The notes under the pieces: generated by a model
Told to the model about the DNA's origin: nothing
The model's input: only the letters and a program-made list of their open reading frames with translations
Databases searched by the model: none
Part shown: one piece after another, positions 140 through 59,603 of the stretch
Position numbering within the stretch: the first letter of the stretch is position 1
Layout: each line of letters begins with the position of its first letter
NCBI GenBank assembly: GCA_040386275.1
Contig: JAZKFU010000005.1
Coordinates: 7,378-71,377 of the forward strand
DNA from: Patescibacteria group bacterium
GTDB taxonomy: Bacteria > Patescibacteriota > Minisyncoccia > Phycocordibacterales > UBA918
DNA length: 64,000 nt
Direction of reading: 5' to 3'
Translations under genes and position numbers: made by a program

Positions 140-1129
140 ATGAGCGATTCGCCAAAGAAAACCATCACGAGAGATGATGCCGGACATCTCGATCAGACGT
201 TACGACCCCAAAGTTGGGAGGAATATGTTGGCCAAAGTAAGATTAAAGAAAATCTGCGCATTTTACTAGAAGCCGCACGCGAACGAGGTCATGCCGCGGA
301 ACACATTTTATTGTACGGCCCGCCCGGATTAGGTAAAACCACATTGGCGCACCTGATTTCGAAAACCCTAGGCACCAACATGCGTACCACTTCTGGCCCC
401 GCCATAGAACGAGTAGGTGATTTGGCGGCCATCCTGACCAACCTTAGTCCCGGCGACGTACTCTTTATTGATGAAATTCATCGCTTAAGCAAAACCATTG
501 AGGAAGTCCTCTACCCAGCCATGGAATCAGGCGTGCTTGATATCATTATCGGTAAAGGTCCTTCTGCGCGTACCGTACAATTAGAACTCCCGCCGTTTAC
601 CCTGGTTGCAGCCACTACTCGGATATCGCTTCTTTCTGCCCCCTTACGCTCCCGTTTTTCTGGCGGAACCTTTCGGTTAGAGTTTTACACCGATACCGAA
701 ATTGCTGACATTTTGACTCGTTCTGCCTCCCTATTACAAGTAACAGCCGATAGTGCTGTTATGCATAATATTGCCGTCCGCTGTCGCGCCACCCCTCGAA
801 CGGCTAACTATCTTTTGAAACGCTGTCGTGACCTTGCTCAACTTGAGAAAGGTGACCTCACTTCAGATATCGTGCAAAAAACTTTTAAACTACTTGAAGT
901 CGACACCCTGGGGTTAGGTGCTCCTGACCGGGCTGTGCTAGAAGCTATTATTCATAAGTTCGGTGGCGGACCGGTAGGTCTTAACACCATCGCAGCGGCA
1001 ACTGGTGAAGAACAGTCAACTATTGAAGATGTTATTGAACCCTACCTCATTCGACAAGGACTCCTAGAACGGACTCCTCGTGGTCGAGTAGCCGCCGCTC
1101 TCGCGTACAGTCATTTACAAGAATTATAA
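140..1129 (+). CDS. ruvB: Holliday junction branch migration helicase RuvB
   Basis: Walker [15 protein letters not shown], Walker [11 protein letters not shown], full-length 329 aa with the typical RuvB N-terminus. Confidence 0.95.
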
Positions 1130-1208
1130 ATAGACTAGAATCAACCTATTAGAAATAGTAGTTTTAAAGAGACTCCTCTTCATTACTACGCTCATAAGAA
1201 AATCTGGC

Positions 1209-1761: not shown

Positions 1762-2012
1762 ATCTACTGCGTTGCGCTACGTTAAATAATTTTTCAACGT
1801 ACAAGAAGTACGTCTCAAAATATTTACCTTGCGCGCCTTGTATCTGAAGTCCTTCTGCCTCTTCTTTCTTTGCAAGCAAAAATTAAATTATAAATTAGAC
1901 GCTCAAAAATCGATACAGTCCTAGGCGCGGAAATAAAAGTTTGCGAGCCGTACTTTTGTACGGTGAGTAAAATTTTATGCACCGCTACAACGGAATGTGC
2001 GATTTTTGTGCG
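1762..2012 (+). repeat. Intergenic repeat element (B module 1762-1830 with ACGTACaagaaGTACGT hairpin, A module 1906-2012 with CCGTACttttGTACGG hairpin)
   Basis: Near-identical copies elsewhere in the window (25425-25510, 53999-54093, inverted 28853-28930; B module at 10335-10410 and 58790-58860). Confidence 0.7.
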
Positions 2013-4228: not shown

Positions 4229-6508
4229 ATGTTCAAAAAACTCATTACAAAAGACTGGTGGAAGAAAAACTATAAACGAATTATCGTTGATAGTTTAATT
4301 GTTATGTTCGTCGGCACCGTCTTAATCGTGAGTGGTCTCTTAATTTGGGTATCCACCTTAGAAATACCTGATCTTTCCTCATTTGAAGACAGACGGATTC
4401 TTCAATCTACTAAAATTTATGACCGAACGGGGGAAATTCTTTTATATGACCTTCACCAAGACGTAAAGCGGACGATAGTTCCCTACGAAAACATCTCTCG
4501 CAACATCAAAAACGCCACCATAGCGATTGAAGATGAACGGTTTTATAGTCACTTTGGGATTGACTTAAAATCAATTGTTCGAGCAGCAGTCGTTAACACC
4601 ACCGCCGGTGATCTTTTAGGCGGACAAGGTGGTTCAACAATTACGCAGCAAGTAATCAAAAACTCGGTATTGCAACGAGATAAAAAACTGTCACGAAAAG
4701 TAAAAGAGGCTATTTTATCCATTAAGCTTGAACGAACGCTTTCTAAAGATGAGATTTTAAGTATCTACCTTAACGAATCCCCGTACGGCGGAACTATCTA
4801 TGGGGTAGAGGAGGCTTCTCAGTCTTTCTTTGGCAAAAAAGCCAGTGATGTAACACTCGCTGAAGCGGCGTATCTCGCTTCCCTCCCGCAAGCTCCTACA
4901 TACCTCTCTCCTTACGGCAACAACAAAGAAGATCTTGATGCTCGAAAAAATGTTACCTTGCGAAAAATGCTGGAAAACCAACTCATTTCAGCCGACGAGT
5001 ACAATCAAGCAAAAGATGAAGTAGTGACTTTTTTGCCCCAGGCTATTTCTGGTATTCGCGCCCCGCACTTTGTAATGTTTGTGCGCGAGCAATTAGTAAA
5101 ACAATACGGTGAAGAAGCGCTCGCTGAACGTGGGTTTAAAGTTATCACAACGCTTAACTATGAATTCCAAGAAAAGGCTGAGAAAATCGTAGCTGAAAAA
5201 GCAGCCATCAACAAAGAACGTTTTAAAGCAGATAACGCTGGCTTAGTAGCAGTTGACCCAAAGAACGGAGATGTACTTACTATGGTAGGATCAAAGGATT
5301 ATTTCAGTGAAGAAATTGACGGCAACTTTAATATAGCCCTCGCTGAACGTCAGCCTGGATCTGCAATTAAACCCTTTATTTACGCGGCCGCTTTTTCTAA
5401 AGGCTACCTCCCTAATACTATTCTCTTTGACGTTAAAACTCAGTTCTCTCCACTATGTCCACCTGATAGCACCAGCTCTGAATCACCATGTTATTCTCCA
5501 AACAACTACAACGGAAAATTCTTAGGACCAATCAGTATGCGCAACGCCATGGCGCAATCATTAAACATCCCAGCTGTAAAAACATTGTACCTAGCCGGCA
5601 TTAAAAACTCGCTTAAGCTGGCAGCAGACATGGGTCTCACCACCCTTAATGACCCCGAACGATACGGACTAACCCTAGTACTCGGCGGTGGTGAAGTTCG
5701 CCTACTTGATATGACTCATGCGTTTGGAGTCTTTGCCAACGAAGGCGTGCGCGCAGAACCACGCAGCGTGCTAAAGATTGAAGATTCTCAAGGTAACCTT
5801 GTATTTGAAAGCCAGGTAGCCAGTAAGCGAGTTCTCGACCGTAACGTTGCATTAATGATTAGTGACGTACTTACTGACAACGTTGCCCGAACACCACTAT
5901 GGGGAGCAAACTCACTGGTTAATTTCACCACTCGTGATGTAGCCTCAAAAACCGGAAGTACCAACAACCTCCGTGATGCCTGGCTTATGGGGTACACGCC
6001 TAACCTCGCAGTAGGCACCTGGGTCGGAAACAACAACAACGCCCCGATGGGTGGTGGCCTTTCAGGATTAATTGTTACCCCTATGTGGCGAGAGTTCTTT
6101 GATTTTGCCCTCGAGAAAATTCCTGATGAAAAATTTGCCCAACCACAAATAGACTTAGCGGGAGTTAAGCCCATAATTCGTGGTGACTATATTGATAGCT
6201 CAATCTTAATCTCCCAAGCACAAACTGGATCTACCACCCCTGACATTAGTGGAGTCATCAATAGTATTCACGACATCTTGTATTACGTCGATAAAAATGA
6301 CCCTCAAGGACCATACCCTTCAAACCCTAATGTAGACGATCAATTTGCTAACTGGGAATATGGAGTGCAAGCGTGGAAAAACGCCACGTACGGTGCCATT
6401 TTAGCCGCTTCAGTTGCATCTTCTACAGCAGAGACAGTGACACCAGATGAAGAAACTGAGGAAGAGGAGGAGACGCCCAGACGGCGACGAAACAATCGTG
6501 ACGATTAA
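4229..6508 (+). CDS. Class A penicillin-binding protein (transglycosylase/transpeptidase, PBP1A-like)
   Basis: GT51 motif EDERFYSHFGID, transpeptidase SAIKPF (SxxK), N-terminal TM anchor, 759 aa. Confidence 0.93.
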   Translation: MFKKLITKDWWKKNYKRIIVDSLIVMFVGTVLIVSGLLIWVSTLEIPDLSSFEDRRILQSTKIYDRTGEILLYDLHQDVKRTIVPYENISRNIKNATIAIEDERFYSHFGIDLKSIVRAAVVNTTAGDLLGGQGGSTITQQVIKNSVLQRDKKLSRKVKEAILSIKLERTLSKDEILSIYLNESPYGGTIYGVEEASQSFFGKKASDVTLAEAAYLASLPQAPTYLSPYGNNKEDLDARKNVTLRKMLENQLISADEYNQAKDEVVTFLPQAISGIRAPHFVMFVREQLVKQYGEEALAERGFKVITTLNYEFQEKAEKIVAEKAAINKERFKADNAGLVAVDPKNGDVLTMVGSKDYFSEEIDGNFNIALAERQPGSAIKPFIYAAAFSKGYLPNTILFDVKTQFSPLCPPDSTSSESPCYSPNNYNGKFLGPISMRNAMAQSLNIPAVKTLYLAGIKNSLKLAADMGLTTLNDPERYGLTLVLGGGEVRLLDMTHAFGVFANEGVRAEPRSVLKIEDSQGNLVFESQVASKRVLDRNVALMISDVLTDNVARTPLWGANSLVNFTTRDVASKTGSTNNLRDAWLMGYTPNLAVGTWVGNNNNAPMGGGLSGLIVTPMWREFFDFALEKIPDEKFAQPQIDLAGVKPIIRGDYIDSSILISQAQTGSTTPDISGVINSIHDILYYVDKNDPQGPYPSNPNVDDQFANWEYGVQAWKNATYGAILAASVASSTAETVTPDEETEEEEETPRRRRNNRDD

Positions 6509-7044: not shown

Positions 7045-8139
7045 TTATTTATTCATCGGCATCACGAGATACCTCAGAGTGGTATCAGATACACCTTGGA
7101 TTACCAGAGGCCTTCCAATGCCGGCAAAGTGCATTATAAGACTATCGTCACTAATATGTGACAGCGGATCAATTAAGTACTGTTGGTTAAAATTAAGCGT
7201 AAGGTCCTCCCCTTCTGTTTGCACTTTAATCGTATCGGTAGTGGTTCCAACTTCACCATTCTGAGACGAAATAGTTAATTCCGAAGCAGCAATTTTAATA
7301 GTAACCTGCATAAACTTATTTAAAAATACTTGTGTCTTTTTAAATGACTGCAAAATATCACTCTTAAGCGCAGTGGTGTGTGTCACATACTCCTTAGGAA
7401 TAATCTGCTCATAGTCGGGAAACGAGCCTGAGACGAGTCGTGACGTGATATACACCCCTTCAGAAAACGAAAGCGCACATTGATTATCATTAATAATGAG
7501 AGTTGGATCAGTTTCAAGCAAATCACAGATACGAGCTAATTCAATTGCGTTCTTTTGGGGAATAAGAATAGTTTGATTGAGTATAAAATTCTTTTGCGGA
7601 ACAGTCTTTTCCATCAACCTAAAAGAATCAGTAGCCACAAACGTGAGTGAGTGTTCTTTTTTTTGTTGAATAAAAATACTGCCTAATTCCGGCTTAATAG
7701 AAGACTGCGAAGCAGCAAACGCCACTGTCTTTATTCCTAACGCAAAAAGATTTTTTTGGATTGGAGAACCACCCACAGTTAGTTTTACAATTGACGGAAA
7801 CTCATCATACGGAATAGCGTTAATGGTAGTTTTACCACTTCCACTATCAACTAAGAGCACACCTTCAGTAACAGAGAGCGTTACATCCTTTTTAGTAATA
7901 TATTGCACTGCTTGCATTAAGGTGGTGGCTGAGACTGCCACAATTCCCTCTTCTTCCACATTAGCTTCCACTACCACCTCAATTCCTATCTCTAAGTTAG
8001 TCGCTTTAAAAGTGACTGTACCTTCTTTAACAGTAATTAAGACACACTGTAGAACGGGTAACGTTACATGTTTGATACTTACTCGGGTAATGAGTTCTAG
8101 TGCGTGGATAAGTTTTTGTTGGTTGAGTATTATTTTCAT
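7045..8139 (-). CDS. dnaN: DNA polymerase III beta sliding clamp
   Basis: 364 aa, MKIILNQQKLIHAL N-terminus, located immediately downstream of dnaA. Confidence 0.93.
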   Translation of the reverse strand: MKIILNQQKLIHALELITRVSIKHVTLPVLQCVLITVKEGTVTFKATNLEIGIEVVVEANVEEEGIVAVSATTLMQAVQYITKKDVTLSVTEGVLLVDSGSGKTTINAIPYDEFPSIVKLTVGGSPIQKNLFALGIKTVAFAASQSSIKPELGSIFIQQKKEHSLTFVATDSFRLMEKTVPQKNFILNQTILIPQKNAIELARICDLLETDPTLIINDNQCALSFSEGVYITSRLVSGSFPDYEQIIPKEYVTHTTALKSDILQSFKKTQVFLNKFMQVTIKIAASELTISSQNGEVGTTTDTIKVQTEGEDLTLNFNQQYLIDPLSHISDDSLIMHFAGIGRPLVIQGVSDTTLRYLVMPMNK

Positions 8140-8496
8140 TTTTTTATATTTTACTCTCTCTTATTAGGGGTGTGGAAGTGTGCATAAGCTAAAAATATGT
8201 TGTATTTATAAGGCTACTGTAGCACCTTTATTTATAAAATACCTGTGTATTTATCTGTGCATACTGTTCATTTCTTTGGGGATAGAACTGGTCTTTTCAT
8301 AATATGGGTATAACTCACTCTTTTATACCCACTATTTTTTGTAAAAATTAGCAGTATCGACGGTTTATTAGCCACTAAACCAGCTCTTCTTCCCCAGGGT
8401 TACAAAGGATCATCCCCAGTTTATCCCACGTTGGTGGGTATAACTGATACTGCTGTATAAAATAAAACATCAGGTATCCTCGTGATACCTGATGTT
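8140..8496. promoter_or_regulatory. AT-rich dnaA-dnaN intergenic region (possible oriC part / DUE)
   Basis: 357 bp non-coding, AT-rich, degenerate DnaA-box-like words; hairpin 8464-8498 overlapping dnaA stop. Confidence 0.4.
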
Positions 8497-9882
8497 TTAT
8501 TTTAAGAGTAGTCGTACCTGAGTAATCTCTTCTTCTAGTTCGGCGTCTACTTTGAGGTCTCGTTTAATTTTTTCACAACTATGGATCACCGTGGTATGGT
8601 CTCTTCCTCCAAGTTTTTTACCAATGGCCGGGTACGATACCTGAAAATCTTCTCGTAAAATGTACATGATAATCTGTCTTGGCTTCACTACTTCTTTTCG
8701 ACGGGTCTTTTCGTAAATACTCGCTTGATCAATATCAAAGAAGCGTGCCACTTTATCAACTACATCAGAGACGGCTAGGGTTTTTCGGGGTCGACTACTG
8801 TTTTTAATAATCGCCTTTACCTCCTCGATAGTAAGGGTTCGTCCCAATAGTTGTGATTGGCACATAATGGTATTAAGAGCCCCTTCGAGTTCCCGGATGT
8901 TGCCTTCAATAGTTTGAGCGAGGTGTTCAACTACATCGTCAGCCAGAGAAATACTATTTTGCGCAGCTTTGGCGCGTAAAATAGCCGCTCGTGATTCTGT
9001 GTCGGGAGCAGGAATATCAACAATCATCCCCTGTCCAAACCGTGATCGTAACCGATCTTCCATACCAGCAAGTAACGCTGGGTGCATGTCACTTGAAAAC
9101 ACAATTTGCTTATTGGTGTCATGGAGCGCATTAAAGAGGTGAAATAATTCTTCTTGTGTCTTTTCTTTGGTGGCTAAGAACTGGACGTCGTCCATAATCA
9201 GAACATCATACTGGCGGTATTTGTCTTTAAAATTATTAGCAGTTCCACTTTGCAGCGCATTAAAGTAATCCACGGCAAACCGTTCACTGGTGACATAAAA
9301 CACCTTCTTACCAGTCTTTTTTACCTGATTACCTACCGCTTGAATGAGGTGAGTCTTACCGTGACCGGTTTTACCATAAATAAATAGTGGATTATACGCA
9401 ATTCCCGGCTTTTCACTCACAGTTTTAGCAGCTGCGTGCGCAAGCGCGTTGTAAGGGCCTACCACAAAGTTTTCAAAAGAATATTTTGGGTTAAGGTTAT
9501 CACTTTTATTGATGTAGTAATCCTCAAGCGGGAGAGCGGCATTAATGGTTTGAGTTTTATTGGTCTCCCCTCTTCTATCGCTCCGTTGTAGTACGGCGTA
9601 TTCAATACTCCGTACATAGGGAGTAATTTCACGCAGGGTTTTTAAAATCATTGACTGAAATTTATCAGCCAGCCAGTCCCGAACAAAAATACTCGGTACC
9701 CCAATAGTGAGGGTGCCGTCCTCAAGCGAAACAATGTGCGTGTCGCGAAACCAAGTCTTAAAGTTAGCAGGAGTGATTGATAGTTCAATCTTAACCAAGG
9801 CATTATCCCACAGACTTTTAACATCAATTTGCTCAGTTCGAACAATGCTATTGCTTTGATGTTGGTGTGTTACAGGAGGCAT
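8497..9882 (-). CDS. dnaA: Chromosomal replication initiator DnaA
   Basis: Walker A GKTGHGKTHL, AAA+ sensor motifs, C-terminal DNA-binding domain, 461 aa. Confidence 0.97.
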   Translation of the reverse strand: MPPVTHQHQSNSIVRTEQIDVKSLWDNALVKIELSITPANFKTWFRDTHIVSLEDGTLTIGVPSIFVRDWLADKFQSMILKTLREITPYVRSIEYAVLQRSDRRGETNKTQTINAALPLEDYYINKSDNLNPKYSFENFVVGPYNALAHAAAKTVSEKPGIAYNPLFIYGKTGHGKTHLIQAVGNQVKKTGKKVFYVTSERFAVDYFNALQSGTANNFKDKYRQYDVLIMDDVQFLATKEKTQEELFHLFNALHDTNKQIVFSSDMHPALLAGMEDRLRSRFGQGMIVDIPAPDTESRAAILRAKAAQNSISLADDVVEHLAQTIEGNIRELEGALNTIMCQSQLLGRTLTIEEVKAIIKNSSRPRKTLAVSDVVDKVARFFDIDQASIYEKTRRKEVVKPRQIIMYILREDFQVSYPAIGKKLGGRDHTTVIHSCEKIKRDLKVDAELEEEITQVRLLLK

Positions 9883-9995
9883 AGTGATAATATTTCTAAA
9901 GCTGTGTGAATTATACTGGGTGAAAAAAAACTGTAAATACTAAGGCAATAAAGTGACTAAAAAGTACCCCTCAGTATTGATACTCTTTATGCAAC

Positions 9996-10015
9996 TGTGG
10001 ATAACCTGTGGACAA
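9996..10015. promoter_or_regulatory. Two adjacent DnaA boxes (TGTGGATAA, TGTGGACAA) in the dnaA-rpmH intergenic region
   Basis: Exact reverse complement of consensus TTATCCACA plus a 1-mismatch copy 2 bp away. Confidence 0.65.
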
Positions 10016-10145
10016 TAATTTTTTATACCAACTGTCCATCCCCTATCGAGTCACTCGTACTATTATTATACGGATAGTGAGGGTCGGTTAACAGGTTGCG
10101 AACTTTAAAATATCATGTATAGTTCTACCACTAATTACATTTAAT

Positions 10146-10301
10146 ATGAGTAAACGAACCTACCAACCAAGTAAGCAGAAACGAGCCACTACCCACGGCT
10201 TCTTAGTGCGTATGGCAACTACTGCCGGAGCCAAGATTATCCGCGCTCGAAGACGAGTGGGACGTGCACGACTAACCGTTAAGCCCTCAAAAGCTCGATA
10301 A
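10146..10301 (+). CDS. rpmH: 50S ribosomal protein L34 (51 aa; missed by the >=60 aa ORF track)
   Basis: Translation [45 protein letters not shown]..., classic L34; rpmH-rnpA-yidC synteny. Confidence 0.9.
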
Positions 10302-10466
10302 ACAATTCTAAAAAGGCCCCATCTACGTTGTTGCCTGCACAGTTTATTAAGTTCATCGTACAAGAAGTACGTTTCACCTAAAAACTGCTGGTCGCCTAGT
10401 ATCTGGGGCCTTTTTAGAACCGTTTAATTACGCAAGGCAATATACTTTCTAGAGTATAATTTATAT

Positions 10467-10793
10467 ATGTTCAAAAAATCCGAACGTATCACCCGTACCG
10501 CTTTTACACAATACTTTAAAATTGGCCGTCGGTTCCATACTGATTTCTTTACGCTTATTTACTCCCCCGCCCCGGTGCGGGGAGTGGCGGTGGTGGTTGG
10601 AAAAAAAGTATTTAAAGAGGCAGTTGATCGGAATACGTTACGTAGACGGGTCTATGCGGCGGCACGCACTTCACTTCAAACGAGTACTGGTATCTATCTG
10701 ATTATCGCCAAGCCGACTGCTAAAAATCTGAATCAAAAAGACGTAGCTCCGGCAATAGCAGAGCTTCTCGCCACCGCGTTAAAAGCAAGGTAG
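10467..10793 (+). CDS. rnpA: Ribonuclease P protein component
   Basis: 108 aa basic protein downstream of rpmH, RnpA-like. Confidence 0.85.
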   Translation: MFKKSERITRTAFTQYFKIGRRFHTDFFTLIYSPAPVRGVAVVVGKKVFKEAVDRNTLRRRVYAAARTSLQTSTGIYLIIAKPTAKNLNQKDVAPAIAELLATALKAR

Positions 10794-25250: not shown

Positions 25251-25424
25251 ATATATGTACTTAATTACAAGAGAATGTTGAATATTAAATATGGGATAGA
25301 GAATATAGAAAATGGAATATTGAAAAGTGAAGAGTTTAAAGAAATAAATTCAAAATAGAAGTAAACGAATCAACAAATGTTACCCTGCATAAAAGGACGC
25401 TCATAAATGAGTGCAATTCAAGGC

Positions 25425-25510
25425 AACCAAGTAAAATGGACTGAGCCGTACTTTTTGTACGGTGAAGAGCATTTTGCGCGGGTTAACGCAGAAGTGTGCC
25501 ATTTATGCGT
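25425..25510 (+). repeat. Intergenic repeat element, A module copy 2
   Basis: gagccgtactttttgtacggtgaagagcattttgcgcgg...acgcagaagtgtgcc aligns with 1925-2010. Confidence 0.65.
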
Positions 25511-25519
25511 GTCCGCTCC

Positions 25520-27481
25520 TTAGTCGAGGAAGATTGTGGTCTCGTAACCGGATGAAGTATTCCCCCACCCTCTCGGGTTCTCACTCTCCACGTATTCTTT
25601 ACTAATATCATTAATAAATGTCGAAGGCACATTTACTTTTTGGGTTCCATAAATGGTGCGCATATGTGCGTAGGTCAAATACACTTTTTTCTCTGCTCGC
25701 GTTAACGCTACATAAAATAACCGACGCTCTTCTTCGTGATCAATGCCGATGTCATCGAGGCGTTCATGAGGAAACAATCCTTGCTCAAGACCACACACAA
25801 ACACGTATGGGAATTCCAGTCCTTTTGCGGAGTGTACGGTCATAAGTCGTACTGCATTTAATTCCTCTTTGTCTTTAATTTCATCTTGATCACTTTGCAG
25901 AGCGGCATTTTCAAGTAAGGCCTCAACTGCATCTTCGGGACTGAGCTCGTCGTAACGGACAGCCAGGGTAACAAGCTCCTGAAGGTTTTCCAGACGAGAT
26001 AAATCATCCTCTGTTCCGTTCTTTTTTAATTCAGTTTCTATCCCGGTCCGCTTCATAATAAATTTTAGCGTCTCAGAAAGTACTTTGGTGCGGGCTTCAT
26101 CAGCAATATCGAGCATCATTTGATCAAATCGTTCCACTTTTTCTAAGGTGGCTCCTTTGAGTTCAGCCTTCTTGCCTTCCATAACTTTAAGCATCGTTAC
26201 TTTACCTATACCACGAGCTGGCTCATTAATTACCCGGGCTAAATCAGCGGTGCTGGTAGGATTTAAGGCTAACCGAAGGTACGATAATACGTCCTTAACT
26301 TCTTTACGTTCAAAGAATTTTGTACCCAAAAGCTGGTAGGAAACCCCGTAGTTAAGGAATGCTTCTTCTAGCACTCGAGATTGGAAGTTCGTTCGATAGA
26401 GCACGGCAATCTGGGATGGTTCTAGGCCGTCTTCGATAAGTTTTTTTGCGGTGCGGGCAATGTATTCAGCTTCGTCAGGACCAGTCATAGCGGCATAGAG
26501 GGATATTTTCTCCCCATCCCCATTACTGGTGAATACTTCTTTAGCAACGCGATTTTTATTTTTTTCAATGACATCATTTGACGCACCAATGATGTTTTTA
26601 GTGGAACGATAGTTTTCTTCAAGGAGTATGGTAGTAGCAGTAGGGAAAAACCTTTCAAACTGTAGTACGTTTTTAATATCTGCTCCTCGCCAGGAGTAAA
26701 TATTTTGGTCGATATCTCCCACGACGCATAAATTGTGACGTTCGCCAGTTAGTAATTTAGCAATTTCAAATTGTACGCGATTAGTATCTTGATACTCATC
26801 AACGTGAATGTATTGAAAACGGTTTTGCAGCGTTGTGCGTACAGTTTGGTTTTGTTCAATTAAACGTAAGGTTTTAATCAGTAAATCATCAAAATCTAAG
26901 GCGTGTTCTCCCTTCATTATTTCTTCATACTTCACCCAGACATCACCCGCTACCCGATCCGGATATGATGAGGCTTCGTCTTTAAAAGCAGCAGGTGATT
27001 TTGCATCACCTTTTGCTTTAGAAATTTTACTGAGAATTTTTCGGGGTTCAAATTCTTTTGGGTCGTTATTTGTAGCCTCCAGAGCCTGTTTGATGGCCCG
27101 TAAACTGTCACTTCGATCATAGATAGTGAAGTGACGACGTAATCCAACCGCTTCGTGGAACTCGCGTAAAATCCGGACTCCGAGGGCATGGAAGGTGGTG
27201 ACGGTGGGTAGTGAATTAACTACCGTTCCGTTTGAAGTGGGAAATTCATGAATCAATTTTTCTACCCGCTCGCGCATTTCTTTAGCTGCTTTATTGGTAA
27301 AGGTAACGGCTAAAATGTTGTGTGGGGCTACCCCGCCTTGGATTAAATGGACAATCCGATGAGTAATTACACGGGTTTTTCCTGAGCCGGCGCCGGCGAG
27401 AATAAGTAAAGGACCTTTCGTGTGCAATACGGCTTGTTTTTGAGGGGTATTTAAACCTGAAAAGTACGGTGCATCATTCAT
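25520..27481 (-). CDS. pcrA: ATP-dependent DNA helicase UvrD/PcrA
   Basis: Walker A AGAGSGKTRVITHRI, UvrD motifs, 653 aa. Confidence 0.93.
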   Translation of the reverse strand: MNDAPYFSGLNTPQKQAVLHTKGPLLILAGAGSGKTRVITHRIVHLIQGGVAPHNILAVTFTNKAAKEMRERVEKLIHEFPTSNGTVVNSLPTVTTFHALGVRILREFHEAVGLRRHFTIYDRSDSLRAIKQALEATNNDPKEFEPRKILSKISKAKGDAKSPAAFKDEASSYPDRVAGDVWVKYEEIMKGEHALDFDDLLIKTLRLIEQNQTVRTTLQNRFQYIHVDEYQDTNRVQFEIAKLLTGERHNLCVVGDIDQNIYSWRGADIKNVLQFERFFPTATTILLEENYRSTKNIIGASNDVIEKNKNRVAKEVFTSNGDGEKISLYAAMTGPDEAEYIARTAKKLIEDGLEPSQIAVLYRTNFQSRVLEEAFLNYGVSYQLLGTKFFERKEVKDVLSYLRLALNPTSTADLARVINEPARGIGKVTMLKVMEGKKAELKGATLEKVERFDQMMLDIADEARTKVLSETLKFIMKRTGIETELKKNGTEDDLSRLENLQELVTLAVRYDELSPEDAVEALLENAALQSDQDEIKDKEELNAVRLMTVHSAKGLEFPYVFVCGLEQGLFPHERLDDIGIDHEEERRLFYVALTRAEKKVYLTYAHMRTIYGTQKVNVPSTFINDISKEYVESENPRGWGNTSSGYETTIFLD

Positions 27482-27799
27482 AACGGTGACACTATACCAT
27501 ACCTGGTAAAAAAACCATTAATTAGATTTAATAAAGTGTCAATAGAATAAAAACAGTTATTTTTATACCTATTTCGACCCTTCCCTCCCTCGACTGGGGA
27601 AAGTGCATTACGTCAATTGTACTTACGGAAGACTCTAGTAGAATTAGCGCATTACCAACGTGTGGTAACGGCAGAAGAGCCTTTGGCTCTTTTTGTTTCG
27701 ACAAAATTTCCTGTAGCGGTTGTACGGCGGCGTGTCCATAACTTAACAACTATTCAACCAACTCCACCAAAGTCCAAAACAATTCTCGTACTTGACCGT

Positions 27800-28849
27800 A
27801 TGGTTGCTCGGATGAAACATAGAACAATTACAAAACGCCTCGCGCGATATAGTTTTGACGGTGTATTACTGATTGTATCGATTGTTGTCCCGTTATCTGT
27901 ACAAGCGGGTGTTTTCCCATCCTTTAAAGACGTGGGTGAAACTCCTCAAGTAACTGAATTTAATCCCACTGAATCATTAGTAGATGTAACGGTATTAACT
28001 GCCGCTCAAAATGCAGAACCACACGATGCTCGAGGCGGATCTGATGTTTTAGCACAAGATGGGGTATTGGTTTCAACCGGTCCGGTAGGAGCGGATGAGA
28101 TTACCGCATCTCGCACCAATGGTGGAGAAATTAGTGTGTATGTAGTTCGGGCCGGGGATTCCCTTTCTGAGATTGCCGCTATGTTTGGCGTGACTTCAAA
28201 TACTATTTTATGGGCTAATGATTTGCCGCGCGCTTCAGCTATTAAGCCCGGTGACACATTAATTATTCTTCCTATTGCCGGTGTCAGACACGTGGTTAAA
28301 TCAGGTGATACACTTTCCAGTATTGCTAAAAAATACAAAGGAAACGCAGAAGAAATTTTGTCCTACAATCAATTAGAGAATAATAATGATTTAGCGATTG
28401 GCGATACGATTGTTATTCCAGGTGGTGCCCTGCACGTTGAATCAGCTCCTCTTTCTACAAAAACAGCCAAGAAGAGTAGCACCATTAAAAATACTGCGAC
28501 TGGGGGTAGTTCATTCTCGCATCCAATTCCAGGTGGAGTAAAAACTCAAGGTATCCATGGTTCAAACGGCGTCGACTTTGGAGCGGGTATTGGAACAACT
28601 ATTCGCGCAGCCGCTGCCGGACAAGTTATCGTTGCCAAGAGTACTGGCTGGAACGGAGGATATGGTAACTACATTGTAATTAAACATGCCAATGGTACGC
28701 AGACACTGTACGCCCACCTCTCTCGAGTTGATGTCGGAGTAGGTGCTTCAGTTGCTTCTGGAGAATCAATTGGTGCTTCAGGAAATAGTGGTAAGTCGAC
28801 GGGGCCACATCTTCACTTTGAAGTTCGTGGAGGAAAAAATCCTTTCTAA
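27800..28849 (+). CDS. LysM-domain M23 family metallopeptidase (start inferred at MVARMKHRT)
   Basis: Two LysM repeats (GDSLSEIAAMFGV..., GDTLSSIAKKYKG...), M23 motif ending GPHLHFEVR; TM anchor. Confidence 0.82.
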   Translation: MVARMKHRTITKRLARYSFDGVLLIVSIVVPLSVQAGVFPSFKDVGETPQVTEFNPTESLVDVTVLTAAQNAEPHDARGGSDVLAQDGVLVSTGPVGADEITASRTNGGEISVYVVRAGDSLSEIAAMFGVTSNTILWANDLPRASAIKPGDTLIILPIAGVRHVVKSGDTLSSIAKKYKGNAEEILSYNQLENNNDLAIGDTIVIPGGALHVESAPLSTKTAKKSSTIKNTATGGSSFSHPIPGGVKTQGIHGSNGVDFGAGIGTTIRAAAAGQVIVAKSTGWNGGYGNYIVIKHANGTQTLYAHLSRVDVGVGASVASGESIGASGNSGKSTGPHLHFEVRGGKNPF

Positions 28850-28852
28850 TTT

Positions 28853-28930
28853 CGGCGCATTCCGTTGTCGCTACAGAAAATGGCGTTCGTCGTATATTGA
28901 ATACGCCTCGCGCCATTTTTCTTAGGCTCC
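28853..28930 (-). repeat. Intergenic repeat element, A module copy 4 (inverted; hairpin replaced by CGTATtcaatATACG)
   Basis: Reverse complement contains cagtcctagg...acaacggaatgcgcc matching copy 1. Confidence 0.6.
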
Positions 28931-29183
28931 TAGGACTGCATCCAAAATAAGAAAGGATTATCTCGTTGCTCCAAAACTTTTCCTTGCGCGCCTCGACCTT
29001 CATTGTGTTGAGCAAGTTTGTATTTTACCAAATATTCTTATTGTATTACTAGTGTATAATTTTTAAATGAGTCGTATCTGGCCGCTCTTTTGTAGTCCTG
29101 GTAACTGTTTTTTACATAGTTTGTTCCAGATTGCCGCAATTAATCTTTAGTATCAAACGCAAAACGTAGTATATACTTGTTAT

Positions 29184-39259: not shown

Positions 39260-39853
39260 CTATCGGCCAAATCTAGCTTTGCAATCGTCTACTTTTTCTT
39301 TAATTCTTTTTTCTACCAGACCATCTGCCCTGAAAGACTCTGCGTCTTTTAGACAAAGTGTGTAAAGCGTTGCTTTGTCGTTTACTCTAAAGATACCAAT
39401 ATCCTTAACGTCAGAAAAGGAAATACTGGAAGTAGATTGGACTTGAGGTGACAGAACTGTTGTGTCACCACTCACAGCGTAAACTTCGTTGTTAGATATT
39501 AAATATACATATCCAGCATTTGGTGAAGCGATAGCTCCTATCCAAACTATTACTCCATCTCCAATCGGATTTTGATAGACGTCAATATACGACTTACCGA
39601 TACCCAATCTGTCCCAGAAAGCATCGTCGATTGTGGCATAGACTTTCTCAATAGCAGCTTCTCTTTCCTTTTTATTAGTTATTCTTACAACTGGATTTGC
39701 TTCAGGTAGATTCCAATTCTCAGTATCGAGTACTTCAGCTACTGGTTTTTGTTCTGGTGTAAACATACCCTTAAAGAAAAGTATTCCTAGTATGAACAAA
39801 ACCACTACTAGAATTACTTTGCGGTTCTTACTTTGATTGGTCGCTCCTTCCAT
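39260..39853 (-). CDS. Membrane-anchored hypothetical protein (start inferred at MEGATNQSK)
   Basis: N-terminal TM KVILVVVLFILGILFF. Confidence 0.45.
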   Translation of the reverse strand: MEGATNQSKNRKVILVVVLFILGILFFKGMFTPEQKPVAEVLDTENWNLPEANPVVRITNKKEREAAIEKVYATIDDAFWDRLGIGKSYIDVYQNPIGDGVIVWIGAIASPNAGYVYLISNNEVYAVSGDTTVLSPQVQSTSSISFSDVKDIGIFRVNDKATLYTLCLKDAESFRADGLVEKRIKEKVDDCKARFGR

Positions 39854-40062
39854 ATTAAAAGGCTTAACTTTGTAAGCGCAAGGAGTAACAAAAAACTCCC
39901 CGCGAGATGGTGGCATGGCCACCCACTGTCAGTTTCCCAACAGGGCCTACAAAGCATCCCTCGCGAGGAGGTTTTTACTTTGTAGGACTTGCGGCCATAC
40001 CTCTATCAAGAGATAAAGGGTTAGGCCATTAATATTCAGTTGTCAGCTAATAGTATATCTTT

Positions 40063-49866: not shown

Positions 49867-50577
49867 TTAATACACGTTGTACGAATCTTCTTCTTTGATA
49901 AGCGCGTAGTCAATGTGCTCTCCCAGTACAGACTGTGCGTAAGGTGTTTGGTCACATACAAATTTTGTGATTTCAGCCGTACTCGCCTTTTCCCATTGTT
50001 GCCAAATTTTATGTACATGGGCAAGTTCTTTTTTAGACAAAAGCCCAAGTGATTTTTTTACCGAGGCACGTGTCTCTTCAATTTCGTACATGTGATAGTC
50101 ATCGCGGTAAATTTGTTTAATGTTTATGACTCCCCCTTGCTCCATTTCTTCAAGTAATCTGAAATAAGAATCAGCCACCGGACCAAAGGCAATTTTTCGA
50201 TACGACAAATCACTTAAGCTAGTATTAGTGTGGTAGTACCAAGCAAAGTCAGTGAGGTACAGTAAATTAGCGAGCTTAGTTTTTTTAAGTGCAATCTTGC
50301 TCGCCTTTGCTTCACGTAAAAACGCGAGAATCAGTTCCCGATATTTCTCAAGATTAGGTGCTGCGGTTTGTACTAGATCATCAATCGTAATGCCAAATAA
50401 TTTTGTGAGTGTGAGGGCTTCACTGAGGGATAATTCTTTTGTCCCTTTTTCGAGGGCAACATATGAGGCGCGTGACATGTGGGTAGCTTGAGCCACTTCA
50501 GCCTGCGAAAGGTTGCGCTCTTCCCGAAGGTATTTTATAAAATCTGCGTAAGTAGTTTTCATGGATTGAGTATACAA
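49867..50577 (-). CDS. XRE-type HTH protein with C-terminal DUF4065/Panacea-like domain (candidate antitoxin)
   Basis: N-terminal HTH LSQAEVAQATHMSRASYVALEKG; C-terminal KLANLLYLTDFAWYYHTN...FGPV matches KLxKLLYxxDF...GPV Panacea signature. Confidence 0.55.
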   Translation of the reverse strand: MYTQSMKTTYADFIKYLREERNLSQAEVAQATHMSRASYVALEKGTKELSLSEALTLTKLFGITIDDLVQTAAPNLEKYRELILAFLREAKASKIALKKTKLANLLYLTDFAWYYHTNTSLSDLSYRKIAFGPVADSYFRLLEEMEQGGVINIKQIYRDDYHMYEIEETRASVKKSLGLLSKKELAHVHKIWQQWEKASTAEITKFVCDQTPYAQSVLGEHIDYALIKEEDSYNVY

Positions 50578-53416: not shown

Positions 53417-53803
53417 TTAAAAAAGTAAATAGAGGCCGTAGCTAAAACAAAGTGCCACTAATATCGGAGCAATAATAAAAATAGCGTACCAGATTGCGGC
53501 CACGAGACTAAACACACTCAGACTCAGTACCCCACTAATAATAATAGTGAGTCGCGCCACAAGCCCGAGGAGTCGTGAAAGTAGATTAATGGTGAAGTAT
53601 TCCAACCATCCTTCCATGTCTAATAATTTTCCCCGTCGCTCCGTCATTCGTTTGTAGGGGGCAAATAATGAGGTGAGAAGTTGTGGAAGCGAAAAAAATT
53701 GCGTTAAAAACCACCAGAAGTTTTTATAAATCCGCACAAATGAAATCAAGGCAGTGGTGTAATGCCAGGTAAGATAATCATGAACAATGGTAAGGAAGAA
53801 CAT
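53417..53803 (-). CDS. Small 3-4 TM membrane protein, 1-nt spacing upstream of the ClpB-like gene
   Basis: 128 aa hydrophobic; operon partner. Confidence 0.55.
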   Translation of the reverse strand: MFFLTIVHDYLTWHYTTALISFVRIYKNFWWFLTQFFSLPQLLTSLFAPYKRMTERRGKLLDMEGWLEYFTINLLSRLLGLVARLTIIISGVLSLSVFSLVAAIWYAIFIIAPILVALCFSYGLYLLF

Positions 53804-53998
53804 AGAGTGTTATGCGTACAGTATAGCAGTCGTATTTGCAAAAAGAGTAGTCACGTGGTGAAAATTTTTTATCAGTTTAGTTTCATGTCTTTTTAAATTA
53901 AGAGAACGAAGACGTAATATACATATATATATGTATCGAAGGAAGTGATTAAAATAAACGAGTACTGTCCAAAAAATAAGATTGGTGTAGACGAGTGC

Positions 53999-54093
53999 AG
54001 TTCTAGGCAGGCAAGGAAAATAATTTGAGTCGTACTTTAGTACGGTGAAAATTATTTTACCGCAGCCTAACAACGAAATGTGCTGTATACGCC
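53999..54093 (+). repeat. Intergenic repeat element, A module copy 3
   Basis: cagttctaggcaggcaaggaaaataatttgagtcgtactttagtacggtgaaaattatttt...caacgaaatgtgc aligns with 1906-2005. Confidence 0.65.
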
Positions 54094-54154
54094 AATCACC
54101 GTAAAAGAAAATACCACATGCAATGCATGTGGTATTTTCCTTTTACGGTGCGTA

Positions 54155-54355
54155 TTATGCGCGACGTACGTTTGTTGCAGCTGGTCCTTTCGGGCCGTCT
54201 TCAAGATCAAAAGTAATTTTGTCTCCTTCGTTCAATTCATCGTAAACATTGTCTACAACTGATTGTGCGTGGAAGAATACGTCCTTTCCTCCATCATCTG
54301 GAGTAATGAAACCGTAACCATTGTCTTTCTTCATTCGTGCAATTGTTCCTGTCAT
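54155..54355 (-). CDS. cspA: Cold-shock protein (CspA family)
   Basis: GTIARMKKDNGYGFITPDDGGKDVFFH RNP motifs, 66 aa. Confidence 0.92.
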   Translation of the reverse strand: MTGTIARMKKDNGYGFITPDDGGKDVFFHAQSVVDNVYDELNEGDKITFDLEDGPKGPAATNVRRA

Positions 54356-54653
54356 TTTATTTTTTTTATATTTTTAATACAAAACTTCACTACGCCTTAC
54401 CACTCGTTACCTTGCTTTGAGGGAGTTATTGTTTCGCTACTCTTATTAAAGCACACCATAAGGAATATAACAAGCAAATACACAACGCTAGTATTGTTGG
54501 GTTTGGGTAAGGCGATGGGTGAAATTCGGTATAGTGGACCTGCGGTAGGCCAGATTGCGCGCGGGCCTTGTTAGGAGGGGTCCTCACCGTAGTATAGAAA
54601 AAACCACTAGTTTGCCCGTGGCAGCTAGTGGTTTTTCCTTTAAAAATTGAAGT

Positions 54654-57865: not shown

Positions 57866-57978
57866 GTACCTGCCTATGGTTTCAAACTAAAAACGCTCCC
57901 CTCATTTTTGGGTGGCGTTTTTTTAATTTAAGAATCTAAGGTTTGAATGTTGTAGGCATTATGAGTATGATGAACATT

Positions 57979-58773
57979 ATGAAAATCTACTCGTGGAATG
58001 TGAACGGCATCAGGGCGGTTTTAAAGAAAGGAGAGTTTCAGGCATTTGTGAAAAACCACAATCCGGACGTGATTTGCCTCCAGGAAACCAAAGCACAGCA
58101 AAATCAGGTCGAGATAGACCTGGGGGAGTACGAGGAATACTGGTGTTCCGCCGAGAAAAAGGGGTACTCGGGAACAGCAATCTTCAGTAAAATAACGCCA
58201 GAAAATGTGTTTTACGGTTTACCGGAACATATTTCATCCCAATATGCCCTTAAAGATAGCTATGGTGACACCACGACCGAAGGTCGTGTAACTACCGTGG
58301 AATACGAAAACTTTTACATTAGTACCGTTTATACCCCCAATGCCAAGGATGATTTGTCACGCATTGCCATGAGAAAACAGTGGGATCCAGCCTATTTGGC
58401 CTATATGAGCGAGTTAGAGGCCATGAAACCAGTAATTTACTGCGGGGATTTTAATGTGGCACATACCGAATTGGACCTAGCTCGCCCTAAGGAAAATATA
58501 GGTAAAAAAGGCTTTACGACAGAAGAGCGGGAGGGCTTTGAGGCTATGGTTACGGCTGGGTTTGTTGATACCTTTCGGCACCTCCATCCAACCGAAGCCC
58601 AGCAGTATACCTGGTGGTCCCATTTCGCCAATGCCCGAGAACGAAATATAGGCTGGCGGATAGATTACATCATGAGCTCACCTGCTTTGATTCCATTGCT
58701 AAAATCCGCCAGGATTCATCCGGAAGTATATGGCTCGGATCACTGCCCGGTTTCAGCTGAGTTTAGTTTTTAG
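57979..58773 (+). CDS. xth: Exodeoxyribonuclease III (Xth/APE1 family)
   Basis: MKIYSWNVNGIRA, QETK, SDHCPV C-terminal motif. Confidence 0.9.
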   Translation: MKIYSWNVNGIRAVLKKGEFQAFVKNHNPDVICLQETKAQQNQVEIDLGEYEEYWCSAEKKGYSGTAIFSKITPENVFYGLPEHISSQYALKDSYGDTTTEGRVTTVEYENFYISTVYTPNAKDDLSRIAMRKQWDPAYLAYMSELEAMKPVIYCGDFNVAHTELDLARPKENIGKKGFTTEEREGFEAMVTAGFVDTFRHLHPTEAQQYTWWSHFANARERNIGWRIDYIMSSPALIPLLKSARIHPEVYGSDHCPVSAEFSF

Positions 58774-58980
58774 GAGGCAACTTCCACAAATAGCACACTG
58801 CGTTGTCGTGATGCGGTAAATAATTTTCAACGTATAAAAATACGTTTCAAACTATTTTCCTTCCACTCCTAGCACTGTATCTATTTCTGAAAGTCTAGTA
58901 TTAAAAGTAAGGTAAATTAAACTAAACAAAAGCACACGATTCTCGTGAATGTCAATATCTAGTGTTCGGTGTCAAAATGA

Positions 58981-59005
58981 CGGCTTAACTGAGCCGTTTT
59001 TTTGA
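58981..59005 (+). terminator. Rho-independent terminator ACGGCTtaactgAGCCGT + TTTTTTT
   Basis: Hairpin plus 7-T run about 200 nt after xth stop. Confidence 0.6.
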
Positions 59006-59603
59006 TGGTAAAAAATCTTTTTACTAGTTGTCTTTTATAAAGGACATTATTTTTTGAGTTATTCACATGTATCCCCGGTAATGTCCTTTACACTATTCTC
59101 TATAGGACATACTATAGTAGTAGGCCCAGAGAGGGCGAGCAGGAATCTCCAGAGTTCAGAACTTAAGTCAAAAACTTCAGTCCCGAACCCTGGAGGTTCC
59201 CCTTAAAGAGCACATTAATAATTAAGAGTATTACCTCCAAAAAACTCTAAAGCACATAGAACCCACCCGTGTGAAATCTTCTTACAAGATTAACTAATGT
59301 CAGACGTAAAGGACATCGGTAGATATTTGCAAGCAACATTGACTTCACACAAGTAGTAATCAACAAAAAATAATATGTTGAAACTCTAGAATAGATCTGA
59401 TGGACGGAAGGTAGAACGAATTGAGCAATAAACTTGGTTAGCCAATTAATTTGGCGCCACATAGAGACTCAAGTCTCTCACATAAGTAACGCTCAGAAAA
59501 TAAAGGCCTGAGGGCATCGCAAGCGGATTATCTAACAATCAGCTAACGATTCTCTCAGGCCTTTTTATTTTACCCAAAAATAACGCCTACCCTGAACTCT
59601 ATC

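Follow-up and report, generated by a model that had tools for sequence, protein, structure and literature searches.

The GTAC-rod, a dispersed family of long hairpins at gene ends in Patescibacteria and other bacteria

The window, meaning the whole stretch of 64,000 nt of Patescibacteria DNA that was analysed, carries seven full copies of a hairpin of about 120 nt, which we name the GTAC-rod. These copies belong to one family that is non-random and widespread, with a defined structure, a strand asymmetry, a position at gene ends, a record of gain and loss, and a wide distribution among bacteria. The family is absent from the catalogues searched (Rfam 15, IMG/VR, and phage and plasmid collections), and a literature search found no description of the element.

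One hairpin family in the window

The seven sites had been flagged in an earlier note, made from the sequence, as a dispersed family of hairpins rather than a 5′-UTR riboswitch, and both parts of that description are upheld. Each site is a genuine repeat (nhmmer E = 1e-14 to 1e-25 per site). The same note divided the sites into a module A of ~95 nt and a module B of ~70 nt, and here it was mistaken. Repeat search and alignment identify B as the reverse complement of A: within the window, the module A copy at 53998-54057 is 80% complementary to the module B copy at 58818-58877, and once the B copies are reverse-complemented the seven sites align as a single family. The proposed lengths were too short, as the element with its outer stem measures 117-159 nt, and the supposedly variable palindromic centre (CGTAY..RTACG) is its most conserved part, with only the 4-7-nt apical loop and the stems varying. 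A profile built from the seven copies finds exactly those seven in the window (E = 3e-15 to 7e-25), along with a weak half-copy at 28969-29002, and a broader profile returns the same seven sites. A structured pattern of 21 bases (CTAGG-N5-A-N11-15-GAR-N-CGTAY-N3-7-RTACG-N-YGA) recovers five window copies against 0.00 expected by chance; the two that it misses have CAAGG in place of CTAGG. The window total is therefore seven full copies (three on +, four on −) and one truncated remnant, a copy density of about one per 9 kb in this reduced genome.

In the window, every copy forms one long hairpin, 117-159 nt in length (−45 to −63 kcal/mol). We refer to the strand that reads as the former module A as the A strand, and to its complement as the B strand. 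Copy 1 (1738-1869, −; formerly module B, 1762-1830) is a 132-nt hairpin of the CAAGG/AACGCAG subtype, with a folding energy of −55.9 for the A strand and −39.7 for the complement. Its 3′ arm overlaps the last codons and stop of yebC (stop 1752-1754; gene identified by Pfam), so the yebC mRNA carries its complement, and orthologous copies stand behind yebC at loci L127, L129, L133, L147 and L169. Copy 2 (1897-2015, +; formerly module A, 1906-2012), a 119-nt hairpin (−55.0 for the A strand, −42.1 for the complement), lies in sense and ends 25 nt before the ATG of ruvC (2041; Pfam). Together, copies 1 and 2 form a divergent (−)(+) pair with 27 nt between the predicted hairpin bases. A similar (−)(+) pair at L011 (3798-4093) lies directly behind a 651-aa ORF, its window counterpart (1738-2015) standing behind yebC, and in both the spacer between profile matches is 47-48 nt. 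In relatives, a canonical terminator occupies the place of the pair's second copy.

Copy 3 (10299-10426, −; formerly module B, 10335-10410) is a 128-nt hairpin with a GC-rich outer stem between an A-tract and a T-tract (AAAAAGGCCCC...GGGGCCTTTTT), and is located in the 584-nt spacer between the divergent genes dnaA and rnpA (both by Pfam). The gene order across 7045-10793 is of the origin type, with dnaN (7045-8139, −), dnaA (8497-9882, −) and rnpA (10467-10793, +). Copy 4 (25395-25514, +; formerly module A, 25425-25510), a 120-nt hairpin of the CAAGG/AACGCAG subtype (−54.4 for the A strand, −33.2 for the complement), runs antisense to the genes on either side, with 5 nt between its end and the stop of a UvrD-type helicase gene (25520-27481, −; Pfam). 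Copy 5 (28821-28979, −), recorded earlier as an inverted module A at 28853-28930, has a conserved hairpin at ~28842-28952 and pairing that extends to 159 nt. It overlaps the stop of a LysM/M23 peptidase gene (27617-28849, +; Pfam), to which it is antisense, and it is flanked by the same arrangement of A-tract, GC stem and T-tract as copy 3. The truncated remnant (28965-29006, −) abuts copy 5 directly upstream; it retains the 5′ half of the element (GAGGCGCGCAAGGAAAAGTTTTGGAG...) up to a break at the GAG loop, and was detected both as a weak nhmmer match (29002-28969, E = 0.23) and in a direct-repeat search.

Copy 6 (53980-54097, +; formerly module A, 53999-54093), a 118-nt hairpin (−45.3 for the A strand, −33.4 for the complement), lies between the divergent ORFs 53417-53803 (−) and 54263-54574 (+), and its closest relative among the matches listed is a Kaiserbacteria copy with 79% identity. 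Copy 7 (58779-58895, −; formerly module B, 58790-58860) is an antisense 117-nt hairpin (−45.6 for the A strand, −23.4 for the complement) that starts 6 nt past the stop of an exo/endonuclease/phosphatase (ExoIII-type) gene (57943-58773, +; Pfam) and is followed downstream by a canonical terminator at 58979-58998 (+). Terminator-type hairpins with T-tracts occur there and at 59497-59569, so the organism uses ordinary intrinsic terminators beside the long hairpin. Overall, four window copies lie antisense behind a stop (of yebC and of the UvrD-type helicase, M23 peptidase and ExoIII-type genes), one lies in sense before ruvC, and two (copies 3 and 6) lie between divergent genes. An eighth copy is found just beyond the window, behind a T2SS-type ATPase gene (locus L001).

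Fold, covariation and strand asymmetry

On the A strand the element reads 5′-..CWAGG..GAR-N-CGUAY-loop-RUACG-N-YGA..AACAACG..-3′ and forms a helix of ~50-60 bp. At the tip, a variable 4-7-nt loop sits on an invariant 5-bp stem (CGUAY/RUACG), which is followed by a G.U closing pair and an internal loop of tandem G.A pairs (GAR/YGA). Next outward is a covarying helix of ~10 bp, then the purine-rich loop CAAG/GMAG, a 4-bp helix and the CWAGG/AACAACG loop. The outer stem of 15-30 bp keeps its pairing while its sequence differs between copies. Each rod thus contains three or four purine-rich internal loops with tandem G.A and conserved G.U pairs, and the spacing from CWAGG-N5-A to GAR is 13 nt in all seven window copies. 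Among the matches listed, ~35 bases are invariant across phyla; invariance at the positions of the search pattern is partly a matter of ascertainment, the loci having been retrieved with that pattern, while the AACAACG block, the helices and the outer stem lie outside it.

Covariation was assessed on an alignment of 73 non-redundant copies from many genomes. Here, 17 of the 24 predicted pairs changed on both sides, 90% of cells are paired (64% after shuffling and 26-41% with partners slid), and doubly changed cells number 469 against 155 in the control. The covariation score of 0.651 compares with 0.187 in controls, and none of 500 shuffles reaches it. Compensatory changes are in this way well above controls, as is expected generically of a structured non-coding RNA. 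The earlier note had pointed to further copies and compensatory changes as what such a family ought to display, and had proposed a covariation analysis of aligned copies; many copies were found, compensation is abundant, and the stems covary strongly.

The two strands are not equivalent. The A strand is more stable than its complement in 107 of the 111 copies listed, by a mean of 9.7 kcal/mol, and this preference is seen in separate parts of the rod, with the A strand better in 60 cases against 6 when the outer stem is folded alone and in 51 against 13 for the middle stem. G.U pairs in these stems favour the A strand by 167 to 80. Several pairs are mainly G.U with GC and AU alternatives (for example, column 59/79 has GU 48, GC 17 and AU 8), and such G.U pairs become C.A mismatches on the B strand. 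Unpaired bases on the A strand are 44% A and 25% G; unpaired positions rich in A and G are the usual signature of structured RNA. The asymmetry is independent of the direction of the neighbouring gene and so does not stem from transcription-linked mutation bias: it is a property of the element itself, and transcription does not produce it. Long DNA palindromes may also acquire compensatory changes through template-switch self-correction, but conserved G.U pairs are not favoured by self-correction, which argues against template switching being the whole story.

Distribution, position at gene ends, and gain and loss

A scan of one genome per species with the structured pattern lists more than 115 loci, and all of the listed matches show the full architecture, including the AACAACG block, which was not selected for, and the outer stem. 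Within the Patescibacteria, the hosts are Kaiser-, Uhr-, Zambryski-, Pacei- and Saccharibacteria, Peregrinibacteria and Minisyncoccia. The window, from an uncultured organism, itself resembles Patescibacteria in gene content and in its relatives. The element also occurs in many gut Clostridia/Bacillota MAGs, in Syntrophomonas, Smithella, Geobacter and other Deltaproteobacteria-type MAGs, in Desulfobacteraceae, Syntrophorhabdaceae, Nitrospira and Treponema, and in a few MAGs labelled Gammaproteobacteria. Many of the 8-kb loci carry two or three copies. A pattern scan gave 0 matches in 2.9 million IMG/VR viral contigs, and blastn of a Clostridia copy against plasmid and phage collections returned nothing. 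The Rfam scan proposed earlier provides no family for the element: at the gathering threshold of Rfam 15 (4227 families), the only families reported for the window and 15 related loci were LOOT, tRNA, RNase P and TD-2, all of them outside the element, and at E ≤ 10 three element regions gave only chance matches of the microRNA type.

The position of the element is tied to the ends of genes. Where a gene ends at the 3′ side of the element, the median gap from hairpin base to stop codon is 1 nt (n = 88), and of the copies with a gene end on their 3′ side, 60% are no more than 12 nt from the stop codon. The median gap to a gene start is ~70 nt. The idea that the 3′ end is flush with any gene boundary was rejected, as it is flush with stop codons only. 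The stop codons themselves (TAA/TAG/TGA, 51/32/9) do not differ significantly from background (p = 0.086). Between co-directional genes, among the matches listed, the A strand is antisense in 58 cases and sense in 14, a bias of ~4:1. No associated protein family emerged when ORFs within 4 kb of 115 copies were clustered, and the neighbours are unrelated housekeeping genes such as those for IF2/EF-type GTPases, DnaK, YebC, PheS and PriA. On one side of dnaA, the window copies at 25.4 kb (+), 28.9 kb (−), 54.0 kb (+) and 58.8 kb (−) alternate in strand, and orientation therefore tracks transcription and not replication, with the origin placed from dnaA alone. GC skew is flat over the window and marks no origin.

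In sense, copies adjoin a start codon without a gap (L134) or stand immediately before tRNA genes (L026, L036, L074), while antisense copies follow or separate tRNAs (L061, L084); tRNA linkage shows no preference, with three sense and three antisense cases. With copies in these positions, transcription must pass through the hairpin from either side. Beyond the element, a canonical terminator stands at 58979-58998 in the window and others at L127, L129, L147 and L169; at these sites the B strand must therefore be transcribed within a 3′ UTR. A U-tract after the hairpin (at least 5 T in 8 nt) is present in 8 of 117 copies on the A strand and 15 of 117 on the B strand, and in half of the copies the outer stem includes both an A-tract and a T-tract. 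Scans for sigma-70 promoters and terminators found no consistent promoter upstream of the A strand and did not call the element a terminator. Hexamers resembling a −10 box at the hairpin base number 14 on the A side and 10 on the B side in CPR, 14 and 4 in the Deltaproteobacteria group, and 28 and 26 in Clostridia, a comparison confounded by coding sequence on one side. In the yebC loci of relatives, only ~30 nt separate the element from a bidirectional terminator, and in Clostridia the ribosome-binding site of the next gene lies 15-30 nt from the hairpin. One Clostridia subfamily (L003, L013, L016, L021, L028, L088, L094, L096, L100) has a conserved tail of ~27 nt past the hairpin on the mRNA strand (CCWGRTTTGTGCCTTRAGRAAGGAATG), which places a Shine-Dalgarno-like AAGGA 10-15 nt before the starts of otherwise unrelated downstream genes. 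In a Pseudomonadales MAG (L114, ~4450-4620), a sense copy ends ~20 nt before the putative 5′ end of a 23S rRNA (GGTCAAGCGATATAAGTGCGCACGGTGGATGCCTAGG), as judged by eye.

The element is gained and lost between relatives, and at the DNA level it behaves like a REP/ERIC-type repeat that is copied, inserted and removed whole. At the yebC|ruvC junction, stop and start are 1-3 nt apart in most relatives and there is no element; in one clade, the element stands directly behind the unchanged C-terminus of YebC, as it does in the window, with a canonical terminator after it. Relatives whose RuvC is ~70% identical have retained the copy behind yebC. Between ruvB and yebC, an insertion of 145 nt in L134 contains a whole hairpin, and the same site is empty in L130, L125, L138 and L144 (9-12 nt, flanks ~81% identical). 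No target-site duplication is visible at this filled/empty site of L134, the single site compared. The yebC-ruvC spacer of the closest relatives (L119, 2161-2501; 339 nt) is free of the element; its predicted degree of structure is very high (−113.9 kcal/mol), and another repeat may lie there.

The age of the copies appears to differ between lineages. Window copies have a mean identity of 58% to each other and are often closer to copies of other Patescibacteria (up to 79%), yet all are still well folded, which indicates, from sequence comparison, that they are old paralogues under structural constraint. Clostridia and Treponema copies are near-identical across species and sites, and are thus taken to have spread recently.

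Proposed function, competing explanations and related systems

The reading that we prefer, with a probability of roughly 0.38, is that the A strand may be the functional form, most likely as RNA, with its invariant loops and tip docking a conserved factor. For modules behind a gene, such an RNA would be short and transcribed convergently or antisense; for modules in sense, it would belong to a 5′ UTR or tRNA precursor. The loops and tip would provide the docking surface for a conserved trans-acting protein, for which candidates are a nuclease, an RNA-binding protein or an enzyme responsible for copying the module. Because of its high stability, the A form would be counter-selected when inserted in sense within operons, and this, we propose, would leave about four in five copies between co-directional genes antisense and packed against the upstream stop. 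Against this reading, no consistent promoter precedes the A strand, the genes within 4 kb reveal no partner protein, the sole certain transcript at most loci is an mRNA with the weaker complement B, and several loci leave little room for an A-strand promoter.

It is doubtful that the GTAC-rod is instead a selfish, non-autonomous mobile hairpin following REPIN, MITE or IS200-type logic. Here, the A strand would be a single-stranded DNA form whose conserved loops are recognised by a transposase or recombinase acting in trans, and the host would filter the sites and orientations that survive. Gain and loss as a unit with flanking genes unchanged, the near-identity of copies that occupy unrelated sites across many Clostridia and Treponema MAGs, the presence in several genomes of two to three copies within 8 kb, a copy that is nested or truncated and the lack of a linked gene are all in keeping with mobility, and tandem G.A and G.T pairs are stable in DNA too. 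However, the filled/empty site has neither a target-site duplication nor terminal inverted repeats, and orientation follows transcription, unlike that of IS200/IS605. Next to the RAYT-like Y1 transposases of CPR relatives stands another motif, GGTGTCAGGTACC. Window copies that are 58% identical yet intact are unexpected if they were decaying selfish copies, and the element is missing from the 2.9 million viral contigs (0 matches) and from the plasmid and phage collections.

Comparison with known mobile and extragenic repeats bears on the same question. The earlier note had suggested REP-like elements, terminator or insulator modules, small RNA genes and MITEs; this was a sensible list, although the canonical terminator, the classic MITE and REP-RAYT each fail on their defining feature. 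A small RNA is still a candidate. Like REP/BIME elements and REPINs with their RAYT in Enterobacteria and Pseudomonas, the GTAC-rod is extragenic, multi-copy and hairpin-forming, lies behind genes in transcription units, persists for long and has no adjacent gene. REPs, however, are 20-40 nt long with a 5′ GTAG and are lineage-specific, whereas the GTAC-rod has ~120 nt with ~35 bases invariant across phyla, and its conserved part, unlike that of a REP, is the tip and loops of a single hairpin. A REP/REPIN unit was rejected for its size (20-40 nt against 117-159 nt) and because REPIN copies are highly similar, the window copies only 58% identical. REP-RAYT was rejected as well: in CPR relatives, the RAYT-like PF01797 genes (P0001, P0069, P0029; loci L198-L203; three contexts) lie between GGTGTCAGGTACC and its complement and not between copies of the GTAC-rod, the nearest of which is ~6-7 kb away. 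The GGTGTCAGGTACC motif is absent from the window.

These RAYT-like Y1/HUH transposases (PF01797, ~224 aa, 63-79% identity) form a large family in Patescibacteria, with genes at L009 (7567-8000), L198 (10001-10663), L200 (10001-10666) and L202 (10001-10675). They have GGTGTCAGGTACC upstream and its complement downstream, and in L200 several TGACACCATTTTT repeats follow the gene. Gene and GGTGTCAGGTACC repeats together look like a separate system of the REP-RAYT type.

ERIC/IRU elements of enterobacteria (127 nt) and the Correia/NEMIS elements of Neisseria are likewise imperfect palindromes of ~105-160 nt in transcribed intergenic regions, present or absent between relatives, and they fold as RNA hairpins with an orientation-dependent effect. 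They differ from the GTAC-rod in their terminal inverted repeats, TA target duplications, confinement to one bacterial family and highly similar copies. A MITE, ERIC and Correia included, was rejected because the outer stem sequence of the GTAC-rod varies and there is no duplication at the one filled/empty site. Integron attC sites resemble it in being hairpins (57-141 nt) right behind the stop of an ORF, with an antisense folding strand and structure conserved above sequence. They have RYYYAAC/GTTRRRY boxes at the base, a variable centre and cassette arrays, whereas the GTAC-rod has a conserved centre and a variable base, and its AAC motif has the opposite polarity. The attC assignment fails since there are no base boxes, AACAACG lies in the 3′-side internal loop and the neighbours are core genes (yebC, ruvC, dnaA, uvrD). 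An IS200/IS605-type element was rejected because orientation follows local genes and not replication, with the origin taken from dnaA only. Likenesses to a K-turn, the hairpin ribozyme, single-stranded-DNA promoters and the LexA box were dropped because their defining motifs do not fit.

The multi-copy motifs TD-1 and TD-2 of Treponema denticola in Rfam are comparable in that they covary, have many copies per genome and show no consistent gene association. They do not match the GTAC-rod in sequence or structure, and its taxonomic range is far wider. In a Treponema MAG (L055), TD-2 (RF03162) copies at 1052-1148 (+) and 1298-1394 (−) lie less than 350 nt from a GTAC-rod and are unrelated to it in sequence. 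We rate the GTAC-rod as belonging in kind with REP/ERIC-type structured repeats and multi-copy candidate RNA motifs.

We consider it unlikely that the element is a cis-acting 3′-UTR module of the upstream gene. In this case, the B strand would act within the mRNA from just past the stop codon, whether by blocking exonucleases, by offering a site for RNase processing or by weakly terminating transcription in both directions, comparable to enterobacterial REP/ERIC. The closeness of 60% of 3′-facing copies to the stop codon (at most 12 nt), the location behind housekeeping genes and the A- and T-tract outer stems in half of the copies agree with such a role, as do the downstream canonical terminators that put B in the 3′ UTR (58979-58998; L127, L129, L147, L169) and, in one Clostridia subfamily, the Shine-Dalgarno-like tail before the next gene, with B in sense. 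Yet B is the strand that folds worse, in 107 of the 111 copies listed, with pyrimidine-rich loops and C.A mismatches, and a U-tract follows the B hairpin in only 15 of 117. A plain stabiliser or terminator needs no ~35 bases invariant across phyla, and copy 3 lies between divergent genes and others in 5′ UTRs.

By analogy, the A-strand RNA could also be a self-cleaving ribozyme or the target of a specific nuclease, so that a sense insertion would cut the host mRNA, but this is very unlikely. Invariant loops between covarying helices, many copies, a scattered phylogeny and no linked gene make up a pattern in which twister, hammerhead and pistol ribozymes occur, and cleavage would fit the 4:1 bias against sense copies between co-directional genes. 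The continuous rod, however, gives the loops no obvious docking route, no Rfam ribozyme family resembles it, and sense copies are found directly before the start codons of ruvC and yebC.

Ordinary intrinsic terminators, possibly bidirectional and with a shared sequence, are likewise hairpins just downstream of genes, and copies 10299-10426 and 28821-28979 have the A-tract, GC stem and T-tract flanks to match, but this explanation is largely refuted and hardly credible, as the GTAC-rod has stems of 50-60 bp that carry conserved loops, only 8/117 (A) and 15/117 (B) copies have at least 5 T within the next 8 nt, the terminator scan calls none, expression of ruvC and yebC requires read-through of sense copies in 5′ UTRs, separate canonical terminators follow the element, and copy 3 lies between divergent genes.

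Returning to the A strand as the functional form, a broader claim is possible but tentative: the GTAC-rod may be a previously unrecognised class of functional structured RNA (or single-stranded DNA), common to Patescibacteria, Clostridia, Deltaproteobacteria-type lineages, Nitrospira and spirochaetes, whose GA-rich loops would serve a conserved machinery. Possibilities for such a class are a mobile hairpin colonising gene ends, a ribozyme or nuclease substrate, and a gene-end marker on the antisense strand. If real, it would constitute a large structured nucleic-acid family with strong covariation and riboswitch-like conservation in at least five phylum-level groups. It poses a puzzle in that the structurally selected strand lies opposite the genes, setting the folding and the transcribed strand in conflict. 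The invariance of the loops across phyla and the antisense bias of the folding strand place it above ordinary repeats in interest. The element offers a handle on gene-end biology in Patescibacteria, where non-coding RNA, terminators and repeats are almost uncharted. A model of it would improve the annotation of thousands of MAGs, and a partner protein, if found, could reveal a new RNA-protein or mobile-element system.

Two further features of the window are recorded here. A full-length LOOT RNA (RF03000) at 39909-40027 (−) scores 72.2 bits against a gathering score of 46.4, and adjoins the start of an ORF with no Pfam match (39260-39922, −). A gene with HTH_3 and SocA/Panacea antitoxin domains (49867-50577, −) lies where GC is lower, among small genes to which Pfam assigns no family.
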